Source: an uncultured Candidatus Peribacteria bacterium
Lineage (GTDB): Bacteria; Patescibacteriota; Gracilibacteria; Peribacterales; Peribacteraceae
Length of the DNA stretch: 64,000 nt
NCBI GenBank assembly: GCA_964633955.1
Contig: CAZWIA010000001.1
Span: 16,820-80,819, forward strand
Direction: 5' to 3'
Part shown: piece by piece, positions 4,419-13,228 of the stretch
Layout of the letters: each line of letters starts with the position of its first letter
How positions within the stretch are numbered: the first letter of the stretch is position 1
Notes under the pieces: model-generated
Database searches by the model: none
Seen by the model: the letters and a program-made list of their open reading frames with translations, nothing else
Told to the model about the DNA's origin: nothing
Made by a program: the position numbers and the translations under genes

Positions 4419-5258
4419 TCATTTGCGTGTCATTTTGCGCTGCATGAAGAGCGCTTCCTCCTCCGGCGACCGAAAAGCGTCTAGCACGTAAAAATCCCTC
4501 TGGTGGACCTGCCGGCGGATGCCTTCCCGGAACGCGGGCTGCAGCACGGGGCCGTTCATATCCAGGAGGCATTCGAGCTGTTCGGACGGCGTCCGGTTAT
4601 CGAACAGGACATGGAACTCGGCATGGGTGGAGGCGATCCAAGGATAGATATTGAGTGAGCGTTCCGATCCCCTCCGGCTGCGCGGCACCAGATGGTGCTT
4701 GCTCTTCTGGCGCAGCGGTTCAGGGTCGTGCGGGGTGGAGTGTTCCAGGAACCTATCTGAGAGAACCAGGTCCACAATGGCTCGCCGGTTGTCCTGTATC
4801 AGGAGGTCAAAGAGCTGGTTGCATCCCGACCGATTGGGGTGGGGGACGGTATGATCGATCACGGACGCAACGTATGGTTTGGTATGTTCCAGGATGTCCC
4901 TGATCTCATCCTGAATGCCGGACTGGATGACGGAGGCATTGAGATCCAAGAGCCAGGCGAGTTGCTCCGGCGGAGTCCTGTTCCGGAACACGGTATGGAA
5001 CGCCTCGTGGACTGAGACATTCATCTTCATCTGGTTCACCTTATGGCTGGTCCCGCCCCTGCTGCGCGGGATGAGGTAGTGCGTGCTCTTCTGGCCCAGG
5101 TGGATAGGATGGCGCACCGGCAGGGACTCCAGGAACTGGCGTGAGGAGAGGATCGCGACAATCTGCCTCCGCCAGCCTTTCTGCAGCAGGGCTTGAATGA
5201 CATCCGCTCGTTCTTGGGGTGTAGCTTGAATGACCTCGCTGATCTGTTCAGTGGTCAT
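4419..5258 (-). CDS. Protein with two tandem HNH-like modules
   Basis: An internal duplication carries H(Y/H)L(I/V)PRSR(G/R)G...H(E/A)(A/E)FH(T/V)(V/L)F(R/D)NRTP(P/S)EQL twice. Confidence 0.6.
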   Translation of the reverse strand: MTTEQISEVIQATPQERADVIQALLQKGWRRQIVAILSSRQFLESLPVRHPIHLGQKSTHYLIPRSRGGTSHKVNQMKMNVSVHEAFHTVFRNRTPPEQLAWLLDLNASVIQSGIQDEIRDILEHTKPYVASVIDHTVPHPNRSGCNQLFDLLIQDNRRAIVDLVLSDRFLEHSTPHDPEPLRQKSKHHLVPRSRRGSERSLNIYPWIASTHAEFHVLFDNRTPSEQLECLLDMNGPVLQPAFREGIRRQVHQRDFYVLDAFRSPEEEALFMQRKMTRK

Positions 5259-10112: not shown

Positions 10113-10328
10113 TCACATGTTCGAATAAAACTGCCGCTTCCGGTTCTTCTGGCGGTACTCCTCCCGCTTCAGGGCGCGCAGGCGCTCCAGGCGCCGGGTG
10201 AGGGGCTTCTTGTAGTGGCCGCGCTCACGGAGCAGCTTGATGAGGCCGGTCTTCTGGACCTGCTTCTTGAACCGCTGCTGGAGGCGGTCATTGCTCTCGT
10301 CCTTTCCTTTCACGGCGTAGATGGCCAT
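10113..10328 (-). CDS. rpsU: 30S ribosomal protein S21
   Basis: From the internal Met: MAIYAVKGKDESNDRLQQRFKKQVQKTGLIKLLRERGHYKKPLTRRLERLRALKREE. The upstream part of the listed 109-aa ORF looks non-coding. Confidence 0.85.
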   Translation of the reverse strand: MAIYAVKGKDESNDRLQQRFKKQVQKTGLIKLLRERGHYKKPLTRRLERLRALKREEYRQKNRKRQFYSNM

Positions 10329-10588
10329 AAGCGGGGAGAGAGTAGGGGAAGGGCTCTCCCCGGCGCAAGGCATTCCTTGGTGAAACGGCGGGAGAGATAT
10401 TGACATATTCCAGTAAATAGTTTTATTATACATATAGGTCATTCAGACCACCGTTAAGGTCTAGGCTGAGACAAGCGCTCTGTGTCCGTTGCGGGGATGT
10501 AGAGCGCTTGTCTCACCAGGAACCAGACAAGCCCGAACCGGCGGTTCCGGTCGTAGAGTGCCCCGCCAAGCGGGGGGAGGAGATTGCG

Positions 10589-11302
10589 ATGATGAAGAAT
10601 TTTCTGAAACTCTCCAAGAAGACGGTGGACGCCGGCGAGCGGAAGCTCGCCAAGTACATCACGGCGGACCGGTACTTGGCCATGCTGGCGGCGGACGACG
10701 CTGCCATGCAGCGGCTCGCTGCCGCGTGGCCGGAGGCGCCGGTCACCGCCACCAAGGGCACCGCCCTGATGTACGACGCCATCAGCGTCTGCCGGCTCCT
10801 GGGCCTTCCTACCATGGATGCCGGTCCGCCGCCCGCCGCCCGGCGGGACGAGATCATGCTGTACTACCCCGGCTTGTCCCTCCCACAGCTGCGGGATAAC
10901 AAGGCCGTCCGCAGCCGGAATCTCATGCTAATCCAGAACTGGTACGAGCGGCACGCCTGGGGGCGGGAGGGCTTGGAGCTGGGCTACTATGGCGTCCGGC
11001 TGCCTATCCCAGGCTCCAGCAGCCGCGACACCGCGGAGCAGGCGCAGCTCCTGCGCGATGAAGAGCGGGCCCTGCCGGTGTGCATTGGAGCGACGCTGCT
11101 GCTGGTCCACGCGTTGGCCACCTGGCAGGACGGCACGTTCCAGGATCTCCTCCGGAACGATTGGGTCCGATGCCTAGAACAGACGTCCCCTGGCGTCCGT
11201 GCCGGTCTGACGTTCGGCTCGGAGGGTCTGTACGTGGACGTCTACTGGAGTGGCTACCGCGGCTCCAGCCTCTGGGGCGGCTCTGCCCGGAAGGCTTCCT
11301 GA
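10589..11302 (+). CDS. DGR variable (target) protein; C-terminal 38 codons are the VR
   Basis: ATG at 10589 is preceded by ggaggag (the listed ORF starts at TTG 10508). No signal peptide. The C-terminus ...GLYVDVYWSGYRGSSLWGGSARKAS overlaps the VR. Confidence 0.8.
   Translation: MMKNFLKLSKKTVDAGERKLAKYITADRYLAMLAADDAAMQRLAAAWPEAPVTATKGTALMYDAISVCRLLGLPTMDAGPPPAARRDEIMLYYPGLSLPQLRDNKAVRSRNLMLIQNWYERHAWGREGLELGYYGVRLPIPGSSSRDTAEQAQLLRDEERALPVCIGATLLLVHALATWQDGTFQDLLRNDWVRCLEQTSPGVRAGLTFGSEGLYVDVYWSGYRGSSLWGGSARKAS
11176..11290 (+). repeat. DGR variable repeat (VR)
   Basis: 115 bp, with 100/115 identical to TR. All 15 differences fall at TR adenines. Confidence 0.9.
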
Positions 11303-11353
11303 CCTTGATGTTCGGACCCTTGAATTCTTTGAATTCTCGGGCTTGATCTTTGA

Positions 11354-11390
11354 CCGCTTCGTGACCCTCGTCACGGGGCGGTTTTCTTTG
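11354..11390 (+). terminator. Hairpin plus T-tract downstream of VR (terminator and/or DGR target-recognition hairpin)
   Basis: ccgcttcgtgac-cctc-gtcacggggcgg (12-bp stem with 2 G:U pairs, 4-nt loop), followed by ttttctttg. Confidence 0.6.
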
Positions 11391-11649
11391 TGAACGTCTG
11401 GCACTATGCTCATCACGCATTCTGCTCATGTAGCGGCAATCACGGTTTCCGCTCGCCGGATGCTGCTCTCTCCACACTCATCGGAATCCGCGGATCCACG
11501 GAGATGCGGAGCGTATGACGGAGAAGCATCAAGGAGAAGGAAGTCCGTGCCCATTCCTGGCGGAGGTGCTGCAAGGCTACTCCCGCAAACAATTCAGCGG
11601 AAAGATCCGTATGGTTCAATCCGCAGTGATCCCGGACGGGAACAGGCGC

Positions 11650-11764
11650 AGAACAGACGTCCCCTGACAACCGTGCCGATCTGACGTTCAACTCGGAGGG
11701 TCTGAACGTGAACGACAACTGGAGTGACAACCGCAACTCCAACCTCTGGGGCGGCTCTGCCCGG
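11650..11764 (+). repeat. DGR template repeat (TR)
   Basis: Read in the VR frame it has 8 AAC codons (..DNRADLTFNSEGLNVNDNWSDNRNSNLWGGSAR). The 3' 20 nt (tctggggcggctctgcccgg, TR 11745-11764 / VR 11271-11290) are identical to VR. Confidence 0.9.
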
Positions 11765-11774
11765 CACTTCCTTC

Positions 11775-12122
11775 TCATTCTTTCACTGACTTCATCCACC
11801 CTCCAAGCATCCGTCCAATCTCATCGATGCTCTGCTGCAACTGTACGGATTTCCGCAGATCGATCGCTCTGGTGTCCTTGGACAGCCGCAGGAGGAGACG
11901 CAGCAGGTTAAGCCTGGCGCTGACCCGCTCCAGGTGCGGCATCTTCTGGCTTCTTAGGAGTTGGCTCGCGAGCAGGATGCCTTCAAGGATATCGAGAATC
12001 AGATTCTCCACTTTCTGCCAGAGCGTGTACCGGTCGGCCTTGGGGATGAGGCCACGCAGGCCGTGGACCGTCTTGTACAGCTCATATGCCTTCTGGAGAA
12101 TGGGGATATCAGGTGTCTTCAT
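11775..12122 (-). CDS. avd: Avd-like (accessory variability determinant / four-helix-bundle) protein, 115 aa
   Basis: Small, basic and helical. C-terminal SIDEIGRMLGGWMKSVKE and LNLLRLLLRL resemble what I recall of bAvd. It sits between TR and RT but on the opposite strand. Confidence 0.65.
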   Translation of the reverse strand: MKTPDIPILQKAYELYKTVHGLRGLIPKADRYTLWQKVENLILDILEGILLASQLLRSQKMPHLERVSARLNLLRLLLRLSKDTRAIDLRKSVQLQQSIDEIGRMLGGWMKSVKE

Positions 12123-13031
12123 ATGAAAGTGCATGAGGATATCTTCAGCCGGATCATCTCGCCAGAGAACCTTTTCAGCGCTTGGGAGGAGTTTCGCAAA
12201 GGCAAGCAGGCACGGAAGGACGTTCGGCTGTTCGAATGGCAGCTGGAGCCGAATCTGTTTGCGCTCCATCACGAGTTGCGGACCGGAACATACCGTCATG
12301 GTCCGTACAGCGCCTTCACGATCCACGATCCCAAGCGGCGGCGCATCCACAAAGCGGCGGTCAGAGACCGGATCCTGCACCATGCCGTCTTCTCCGTAAT
12401 CAATCCCATCTGGGAGCCGGCGTTCATTGCGCACTCATTCTCTTGCCGGAAGGGCAAGGGGACGCACCGCGGTGTGGACGCGCTGGAGCGGATGCTCCGT
12501 CGGGTAAGCCGCAACTATACGCGGCCCTGCTTTGCGCTGAAGTGTGATGTTCACCAGTTCTTCGCGTCTGTGGACCACGGGATTCTCCTGAAGATTCTGG
12601 GGCGCCGCATCAAGGACCCGAACGTCCTGAGCCTGCTCACGGAGATTATCGGTAGCTTTTCCAGCACATCGATAGGGAAGGGCGTACCTATCGGCAATCT
12701 CACGTCACAACTGTTCGCGAACGTCTATCTCCATGAGTTCGACCAGTTCATCAAGCACCATCTGCGCGTGTGCCACTATGTCCGCTACACGGATGACTTT
12801 GTGGTCGCAAGTGAGGATGAAACCTGGCTTGCATCGTTGATTCCGCTCATCCGGTCGTTTCTCCAAGAGACACTCCGGCTGGACTTGCACCCCCATAAGA
12901 TAGGTATCCGCAAGGAGCGGCAGGGCATCGATTTCCTGGGATACGTCCTGCTCCCGCGCCATCGCGTCCTGCGCACCCGCACAAAGCGCCGCATGGTAAA
13001 AAAATTGAGAGAGAGAGAGAGAGCGTGGTGA
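12123..13031 (+). CDS. DGR reverse transcriptase (C-terminus displaced into another frame, 13033-13152)
   Basis: Motifs PIGNLTSQLFANVYL and YVRYTDDFVV (YxDD). Probable start is ATG 12123; the listed ORF start at 11961 is antisense to avd. Confidence 0.9.
   Translation: MKVHEDIFSRIISPENLFSAWEEFRKGKQARKDVRLFEWQLEPNLFALHHELRTGTYRHGPYSAFTIHDPKRRRIHKAAVRDRILHHAVFSVINPIWEPAFIAHSFSCRKGKGTHRGVDALERMLRRVSRNYTRPCFALKCDVHQFFASVDHGILLKILGRRIKDPNVLSLLTEIIGSFSSTSIGKGVPIGNLTSQLFANVYLHEFDQFIKHHLRVCHYVRYTDDFVVASEDETWLASLIPLIRSFLQETLRLDLHPHKIGIRKERQGIDFLGYVLLPRHRVLRTRTKRRMVKKLRERERAW
13007..13022 (+). repeat. (GA)8 dinucleotide tract preceded by A7 (12998-13004) at the RT frameshift point
   Basis: Read directly: aaaaaaattgagagagagagagagagc. 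Confidence 0.95.
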
Positions 13032-13228
13032 CGGCTTGTTCAATCAGGCCTTCCAGGCGTACTTGGGTGTCCTCTCACACGCGGACGCCTACCGGCTGAC
13101 GCAGGATCTCCGGAACCAGTATGGGTTTTTGGCGCTTCAGGACAAGGAATAGTACGGGCATCCGGTCTGTCTGCCTTCAGGCAGGACTTCCGTTCCTGCC
13201 CATTGATCCGGTCCGCATCCCCCAGTAG

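Follow-up and report, generated by a model that had tools for sequence, protein, structure and literature searches.

Background

Diversity-generating retroelements (DGRs) represent, to our knowledge, the only natural system of targeted protein hypermutation known in prokaryotes, and their prototype is the element of Bordetella phage BPP-1, with the target gene mtd carrying the variable repeat (VR), the accessory variability determinant gene avd, the template repeat (TR), and the reverse transcriptase (RT) gene brt. A spacer 3′ of the TR is essential in BPP-1, and we know of no DGR RNA other than that of this phage that was studied in depth. Here we analyze a DGR found in a stretch of 64,000 nucleotides (nt) from an uncultured Candidatus Peribacteria bacterium (assembly GCA_964633955.1, contig CAZWIA010000001.1, positions 16,820 to 80,819; the whole stretch is called the window, and coordinates refer to it unless another locus is named), in which the RT gene contains a (GA)8 tract that shifts its reading frame. 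We consider it likely that this is a chromosomal element of a Patescibacterium, probably a member of the Peribacteria, in which slippage of the (GA)n tract switches the RT off and on at random within the population. A phase-variation switch made of repeat tracts, apparently undescribed so far, is probably shared across the clade to which the element belongs.

The locus resembles BPP-1 in that the RT is homologous end to end, an Avd protein is present, the TR has a length in the range of ~115–134 nt with AAC codons, the VR differs from it only at adenines, and the VR occupies the 3′ end of the target gene, where it terminates in a GC-rich segment similar to an initiation of mutagenic homing (IMH) sequence and is followed by a hairpin. 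Unlike BPP-1, the element is chromosomal (cellular) and not phage-borne, its avd is reversed and placed between TR and RT, VR and TR share the same 22 nt at their 3′ ends (IMH = IMH*), the hairpin, which resembles a terminator, follows at a distance of 62 nt, a large structured RNA domain lies 5′ of the TR, the target is small (237 amino acids) and has no tail-fibre context, and the RT gene has a frame-shifting repeat tract.

Further counterparts belong to the Candidate Phyla Radiation (CPR), for which two surveys are cited here. The order TR-(avd)-RT with a reversed avd is architecture B3 of the CPR DGRs (Wu et al. 2018, PMC5758913), and the window shares with the CPR/Patescibacteria elements (clade 2 of Roux et al. 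2021, PMC8144416; B3 of PMC5758913) the host group, this gene order, and the presence of rpsU next to the cassette. As in the CPR DGR targets of PMC8144416, no transmembrane segment, signal-like stretch, or known domain is recognizable in the target of the window. The DGR is genuine and belongs to a type already described, the CPR DGRs with architecture B3; what is new here is the probable repeat-tract switch and the structured RNA 5′ of the TR. The off/on alleles of the RT, the conserved structured RNA 5′ of the TR, and a conserved target leader in the clade of the window go beyond the CPR DGR surveys; the searched text of PMC8144416 and PMC5758913 contains no mention of repeat tracts in avd or RT or of on/off alleles, and our literature search found no paper linking DGRs to simple repeats or phase variation.

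The tracts can also be compared with the contingency loci of Haemophilus, Neisseria, and Campylobacter (including the phasevarion methyltransferases), in which long homopolymer or dinucleotide tracts likewise lie within or near the 5′ end of coding sequences, the reading frame depends on the number of repeat units, alleles found in nature differ by one unit, and independent tracts are found in homologous genes. Unlike in those loci, the switched gene is itself a mutator (the RT or Avd of a DGR) instead of a surface structure or a methyltransferase, the hosts are environmental CPR bacteria, and switching in the clade of the window is proposed from sequence alleles.

In a study of Bacteroides DGRs (10.1101/2024.11.15.621889), the balance between diversification and the loss of a good variant was described as unknown, and bursts together with quiescence were expected. 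If true, a tract that flips the frame of RT or Avd would be a simple, heritable, and reversible answer to this question of DGR control, a mutable switch placed on a mutator, by which lineages would alternate between diversifying a ligand-binding protein and retaining a successful variant; DGR surveys that demand an intact RT or avd open reading frame (ORF) would then miss or misclassify the elements in the "off" state. The covariation-supported RNA domain 5′ of the TR additionally provides CPR DGRs with a concrete model of their template RNA.

The DGR core and its repeat pair

Along the window, the target gene with its VR comes first, followed by the terminator, the leader of structured RNA, the TR, avd in reverse orientation, and the RT gene. 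The original prediction, which was made from the letters of the window and its ORFs, had called a complete DGR, and its core stands: the RT is of the DGR clade, the repeat differences are adenine-specific, and the target carries at its 3′ end the VR, which has an IMH-like GC-rich end. The word "complete" does not apply, as the RT is cut to 302 amino acids by the (GA)8 frameshift in the window assembly. The RT reading frame as assembled (12123–13031, plus strand) matches the RVT_1 model and contains both motifs that had been reported for it (IGNLTSQ and YTDD). Its full-length allele, described below, aligned over residues 2–336 with the solved structure 8ub7_A, which is 100% identical to Brt of phage BPP-1, with an E-value of 3e−50, as compared with 4.7e−23 for the best group II intron RT. 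Judged by these matches, the RT belongs to the DGR clade and is closer to Brt than to group II intron RTs, in agreement with its earlier assignment. The avd gene (11775–12122, minus strand, 115 amino acids), situated in the interval between TR and RT and overlooked in the original prediction, was recognized with the Pfam model bAvd (E-value 4e−17) and with NCBIfam DivGenRetAVD (84.2 bits vs. an equivalog cut-off of 80).

The VR (11176–11290, plus strand) comprises, as had been proposed, the last 38 codons of the target ORF (10589–11302), and the TR (11650–11764, plus strand) has 28 adenines and, when read in the VR frame, the eight AAC codons previously counted. The two are direct repeats of 115 nt that align without gaps, and upon realignment the claim of adenine-only mismatches was reproduced in full, with 100 identities and 15 mismatches, every one of them at a TR adenine (10 A>G, 5 A>T) and none at a non-A position, while the other 13 TR adenines were unaltered. 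With 28 adenines among 115 nt, the probability of such a distribution is (28/115)^15 = 6e−10 (hypergeometric, 1.6e−11). All 15 changes affect the first or second position of a target codon, and they recode 12 residues between positions 202 and 227. The IMH-like GC-rich 3′ end of the VR (11269–11290, plus strand) has the same letters as the TR 3′ end (11743–11764); its identity and IMH-like character had been described correctly, although its length is 22 nt and not 20. No 23-mer is common to both repeats, which diverge in sequence only 3′ of these ends. Identical IMH/IMH* pairs have been found in other DGRs (Wu et al. 2018, PMC5758913). When the window was searched on both strands with the TR (adenines wildcarded) and with the IMH-like 21-mer, no further TR-like or VR-like copies were detected. 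In the related locus L005, the VR is 3 nt longer than the TR (repeats at 4576–4688 and 5093–5208), with an extra codon inside the variable part.

An indirect sign that the VR may vary in nature came from Logan contigs of two runs. Those with the 5′ part of the target end at 11194 (SRR8893623) and 11192 (SRR8893624), the first variable site being 11193, and those with TR, avd, and RT restart at 11262/11263, next to the final clustered variable sites (11261 and 11262). The breaking of both independent short-read assemblies at adenine-derived VR sites suggests that the VR is heterogeneous. A collapse of the TR/VR repeat was ruled out as the cause of the breaks, as the longest stretch identical in both is 22 nt and k-mers of 23 nt or longer from the break region occur nowhere else in the window.

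A frame-shifting GA tract in the RT gene

The 64 kb of the window contain no long dinucleotide repeat other than (GA)8 (13007–13022, plus strand), which is preceded by a run of seven adenines (12998–13004) and constitutes the frameshift site of the RT gene. Frame 0 closes at a TGA (13029–13031), and the conserved C-terminus (…QAYLGVLSHADAYRL…) is found in the +1 frame only, in a segment (13009–13152, plus strand; ...GDGLFNQAFQAYLGVLSHADAYRLTQDLRNQYGFLALQDKE*) that ends with the TAG at 13150–13152. This segment is free of stops and aligns both to the C-terminus of Brt and to residues that are invariant in relatives; the conserved last 41 residues of the RT are lost in the (GA)8 allele. Since the +1 frame is closed upstream by another TGA (13006–13008) and frame 0 by the one at 13029–13031, only an insertion or deletion in or just after the tract rejoins the two frames. 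The (GA)8 allele would thereby inactivate the RT, with the DGR presumably being "off" as assembled.

When the tract length was changed in simulations, 6 or 9 units resulted in a full RT and 7, 8, or 10 units in a truncated one. Both states occur in nature: the contig L001 from SRR8893623 has an identical avd, (GA)8, and the RT of 302 amino acids, whereas L002 from SRR8893624 has an identical avd, (GA)9, and an RT of 343 amino acids, and the (GA)8 and (GA)9 contigs differ otherwise by one single-nucleotide polymorphism in ~2 kb. A collection of 15 billion proteins contained just these two forms, and exact look-ups of the simulated window RT alleles with 6, 7, or 10 units found none. Relatives carry ...KLxERIxxCKAG... 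at the place of the tract, which is therefore lineage-specific.

Simple repeats at avd and RT in related loci

The reading of the tract as a switch is supported by the occurrence of comparable avd/RT tracts across the clade. A metagenome scan recovered 47 more loci of the same RT clade, and ~35 of them show the back-to-back avd/RT arrangement, with 0–13 nt separating the start codons. Repeats were surveyed in the window and 51 related loci (L003–L055, with L007 and L008 left out). A strict repeat was defined as at least 6 dinucleotide units or a homopolymer of at least 9 nt, and the core as the sequence within 150 nt of avd or RT. After the removal of near-duplicates, and with thresholds that were set after the data were seen, 13 strict repeats of 48 related loci were located in the avd/RT core and 2 in the other 78% of the sequence (binomial p = 2e−7). 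In a control set of 80 DGR loci from viral contigs (417 kb), 4 strict repeats and no dinucleotide tract were found (core comparison, Fisher p = 1e−5).

The tracts arose independently at a minimum of eight positions. A (GA)9–10 repeat is located inside the RT of L049 and L050, in a loop other than that of the window, and splits the frame in L050. In avd, (GT)10–15 or (CA)7 occupies codons 4 onward (L030, L032, L043, L042, L044), a poly-G of 9–10 nt directly follows the start codon (L033, L034, L035, L036, L055), or a poly-G is located at the 3′ end (L025, L026). In L006 and L009, the stem of a hairpin located between TR and avd contains (GA)13 and (CT)11, respectively. One of the four control repeats, a poly-G of 11 nt (2441–2451), is found in L059 (IMG/VR, GC content 35%), where it directly follows the start codon of avd and does not share a frame with the Avd domain; the contig is catalogued as viral, and its RT is one of those in that collection nearest to this clade.

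Length polymorphism was observed at six tracts, i.e., the (GA)n of the window and five in relatives. Three pairs of near-identical loci differ in insertions or deletions solely or chiefly at their tracts; for instance, G9 vs. G10 is the sole one in 2.4 kb between L034 and L035, and L032 is separated from L043 by (GT)15 vs. (GT)12. In a prediction test in which tract length alone was changed, exact matches to three of the five predicted in-frame Avd proteins were found in independent data, namely to those of L033 (8 units), L030 ((GT)8), and L042 ((CA)6), while exact look-ups of the simulated Avd alleles of L034 and L055 and of the in-frame RT alleles of L050 found none. In addition, an avd allele of the L032 family on P0160, a contig of 131 kb from the European Nucleotide Archive (ENA), has the (GT)n in another phase and uses an alternative upstream ATG (MIEYPSYVRA-(TH)n...), so that two of the three phases of the L032 avd give a full Avd with different N-termini.

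Proposed mechanism and alternative explanations

In the proposed mechanism, an RNA consisting of the structured 5′ domain and the TR would be transcribed, and RT and Avd would copy the TR into complementary DNA (cDNA), misincorporating opposite adenines as is known for the family. The cDNA would then replace the VR and recode 12 surface residues of a small, possibly C-type-lectin-like target. Slipped-strand changes in (GA)n would turn the retroelement off and on, and the element would thereby alternate between phases of diversification and phases that preserve a VR variant. For the broader proposal, that the whole Patescibacterial DGR clade is under a contingency-style control by (GA)n, (GT)n, (CA)n, and poly-G tracts in RT and avd and has a TR RNA that is structured at its 5′ side and clamped by a helix, we regard the chances as evenly balanced.

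Four other explanations were weighed against the slippage switch. The locus could be a decaying DGR, with (GA)8 as an ordinary inactivating mutation, the TR/VR differences as relics, and the repeats having no regulatory role, and it would fit this idea that the RT is truncated in two of three assemblies, that internal deletions occur in the RTs of three relatives (L005, L045, L046), and that most tract-bearing avd genes are out of frame. Decay nevertheless appears unlikely to us, given that the sister sample holds the intact (GA)9 allele, that the 41 codons downstream of the tract are stop-free and conserved, that the remainder of each out-of-frame gene is intact with exact in-frame alleles elsewhere, that the repeats are strongly enriched at avd/RT with at least eight independent origins, and that both assemblies break exactly at variable VR sites. 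An artifact of sequencing or assembly, in which every cell has an intact RT and (GA)8 results from stutter or misassembly, has a somewhat smaller chance still. Simple repeats are indeed error-prone and (GA)9 is present in one assembly only, but the contigs from NCBI and Logan agree on (GA)8, tract length is the only or main insertion or deletion in three near-identical locus pairs, three in-frame alleles that had been predicted beforehand were exact in independent data sets, and the tracts recur in many independent metagenomes.

We give little credence to a gene that is always on, with the full RT being produced by programmed ribosomal frameshifting or transcriptional slippage at A7/(GA)8. A classic −1 slippery heptamer, A AAA AAA, is positioned in frame 0 just 5′ of the tract; a −1 slip at this site was tried and rejected, since it enters the wrong frame (IERERESVV...) and a +1 shift is needed. 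This shift would have to fall inside the GA tract, as the TGA at 13006–13008 closes the +1 frame, no stimulatory element was identified, and the (GA)9 allele has the frame corrected at the DNA level. It is hardly conceivable that the RT is that of a group II intron, a retron, or a defence system next to a coincidental repeat pair. The best-scoring NCBIfam model was a group II intron RT, yet with 144 bits against a cut-off of 300 and in a library that has no DGR RT model, whereas Brt was the best match among solved structures by 27 orders of magnitude and over the full length, the IGNLTSQ motif is present, avd adjoins, mismatches are confined to adenines, and the same cassette is found in relatives.

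Several points weigh against a slippage-driven switch and should be kept in mind. The exact element is known from three assemblies only, the window assembly and L001 may be non-independent, and dinucleotide and homopolymer tracts are prone to sequencing errors. Among the tract-bearing genes, 8 are out of frame and 3 in frame, a ratio that neutral decay would give as well, and damaged RTs exist in the clade: that of L005 (6001–6942) is without two in-frame blocks and those of L045 and L046 (4001–4825) are without approximately residues 173–231. The transcript ends, the TR RNA promoter, and the lack of activity of the RT of 302 amino acids are all inferred, and the contig breaks in the VR could also be due to a paralogous VR at another genomic site that escaped assembly.

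Terminator and template RNA

The stop codon of the target is followed by a stretch (11303–11351, plus strand) that is conserved in a six-locus alignment and contains repeated (C/T)TTGA pentamers, which are also present between target stop and terminator hairpin in L003, L005, L009, L017, and L020. Because the 3′ ends of VR and TR are identical, this CTTGA-rich stretch could be a candidate mark that distinguishes the VR as the recipient from the TR. Next comes a GC hairpin with a run of T (11352–11393, plus strand) that scores as an intrinsic terminator. The hairpin had been predicted with a 4-nt loop, which was confirmed; its span is slightly wider (11352–11383), it sits 62 nt after the VR end, and it is best read from its sequence as the intrinsic terminator of the target gene, as the T run follows. 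Relatives keep a hairpin and T run at this position with a different sequence. A role like that of the BPP-1 cruciform, a hairpin of the DGR target site, is possible.

Directly 5′ of the TR, a structured non-coding RNA domain of ~230 nt (11417–11649, plus strand) ends in a conserved GGACGGGAA..GGC box. Its helices are formed by 11417–25/11455–63, 11430–40/11445–54, 11478–96/11501–18, 11547–58/11638–49, 11562–68/11571–83, and 11597–604/11614–24 (plus strand). With nhmmer, the domain was found 5′ of the TR in > 15 loci, and the RNAalifold consensus of 13 sequences has 86 pairs, 50 of which show compensatory changes, as compared with 25.7 ± 3 in shuffles (0 of 500 reach 50) and 7–19 in slid controls; 95% of the cells are paired vs. 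84% in shuffles. A long-range helix between GAAGGAA (11536–11542) and TTCCTTC (11768–11774, plus strand), denoted helix 6, brackets the TR, is 94.5% paired, and has three of its seven pairs changed on both sides. On this covariation, the ~230-nt region is a structured RNA. ORFs in the spacer between VR and TR (e.g., 11406–11684) were rejected as genes, as they have no Pfam hit and the structured RNA explains the region better. A scan of the whole window with Rfam gathering thresholds reported two tRNAs only, and a permissive scan of 10400–12200 gave only noise.

The TR of the window ends only 10 nt before the avd stop codon, so that its transcript would run antisense through avd towards the RT gene. 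Relatives have an additional hairpin at this place. In L006 ((GA)13, 4568–4593) and L009 ((CT)11, 1680–1701), the tract forms an expanded arm of the hairpin CAACTCTCTC...GAGAGAGTTG between the convergent TR and avd, and its length alters the C-terminal tail of Avd; the window is without this hairpin.

Target gene, leader, and protein

The target gene is preceded by a promoter-like site (10400–10429, plus strand; TTGACA, 18 nt, TATTAT), proposed from its consensus match at 11 of 12 positions, and relatives have a TTGACA box at the equivalent place. Downstream of this site lies the 5′ leader of the target mRNA (10436–10588, plus strand), a structured region with a long hairpin at ~10467–10515 and a predicted folding energy of −76 kcal/mol (z = −4.7). 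Elements of the leader are kept in L003, L005, L006, L009, and L017, namely a small hairpin, a CGTCAAGG box, a hairpin of ~21 bp (GAGACAAGC...GCTTGTCTC), and a CCGAGCAAGTCCGAGCC box, and apparent compensatory changes were seen among relatives when judged by eye. The leader may be a cis-regulatory RNA.

The target (variable) protein (10589–11302, plus strand, 237 amino acids) is a member of a family without a Pfam model, and neither the protein nor 46 relatives had a match in Pfam, NCBIfam, or the sequences of the Protein Data Bank (PDB). An exhaustive HMMER search retrieved 222 cluster representatives of 170–240 amino acids at E ≤ 1e−3, while a word-indexed homologue search returned the target protein alone, and exact look-ups of GyrB and of the target (236 amino acids) yielded no contigs. 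The AlphaFold2 model of the target had a predicted local distance difference test (pLDDT) score of 92.4. Foldseek searches of this model against the PDB gave weak matches, the best being the C-terminal domain (CTD) of Bd2740 (E-value 0.1, template modeling (TM) score of 0.64–0.66 on the target), followed by snake C-type-lectin-like proteins, FGE, EgtB, and the CTD of Lcl, and nothing significant was found among viral models. The target may have a C-type-lectin-like fold, since the structural matches of its model, although weak, are consistently to folds of this type. Its N-terminus contains no hydrophobic signal-like segment, the original prediction having supposed from the missing signal peptide that the target would act inside the cell, and its sole hydrophobic helix (~residues 161–179) is a core helix in the AlphaFold2 model. 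According to Roux et al. 2021 (PMC8144416), CPR DGR targets typically have no transmembrane segment, signal peptide, or known domain that could be recognized.

Host context and neighboring genes

The closest RTs (59–67% identity) belong to metagenome-assembled genomes (MAGs) named Candidatus Peribacteria, Peribacteraceae, or Patescibacteria group, three of which also encode homologues of the target (31–33% identity) and of avd and have TR/VR differences mostly or only at adenines. In L005, the cassette is found in the same ctpA-rpsU-gyrB neighborhood as in the window, with GyrB being 76% identical, and by this shared gene context the DGR is chromosomal and vertically inherited. A phage-borne element was considered and rejected, as housekeeping genes flank the cassette and L005 has it in the same chromosomal place. 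The gene of ribosomal protein S21, rpsU, adjoins the cassette in both genomes (window 10113–10328, minus strand; L005 4149–4358) but on opposite sides, i.e., RT and rpsU have in effect exchanged places between the two. Ribosomal protein genes inside CPR DGRs were also noted by Wu et al. 2018 (PMC5758913).

In the window, the start codons of avd and RT abut (CAT|ATG, 12120–12125), and each promoter must therefore lie within the other gene. The starts abut or nearly do so in L009, L032, L037, and others, often with the palindrome CATATG, and this layout is kept across the clade, with that of L009 matching the window exactly. In L020 (1416–5038), the target and the RT are present as a tandem duplication.

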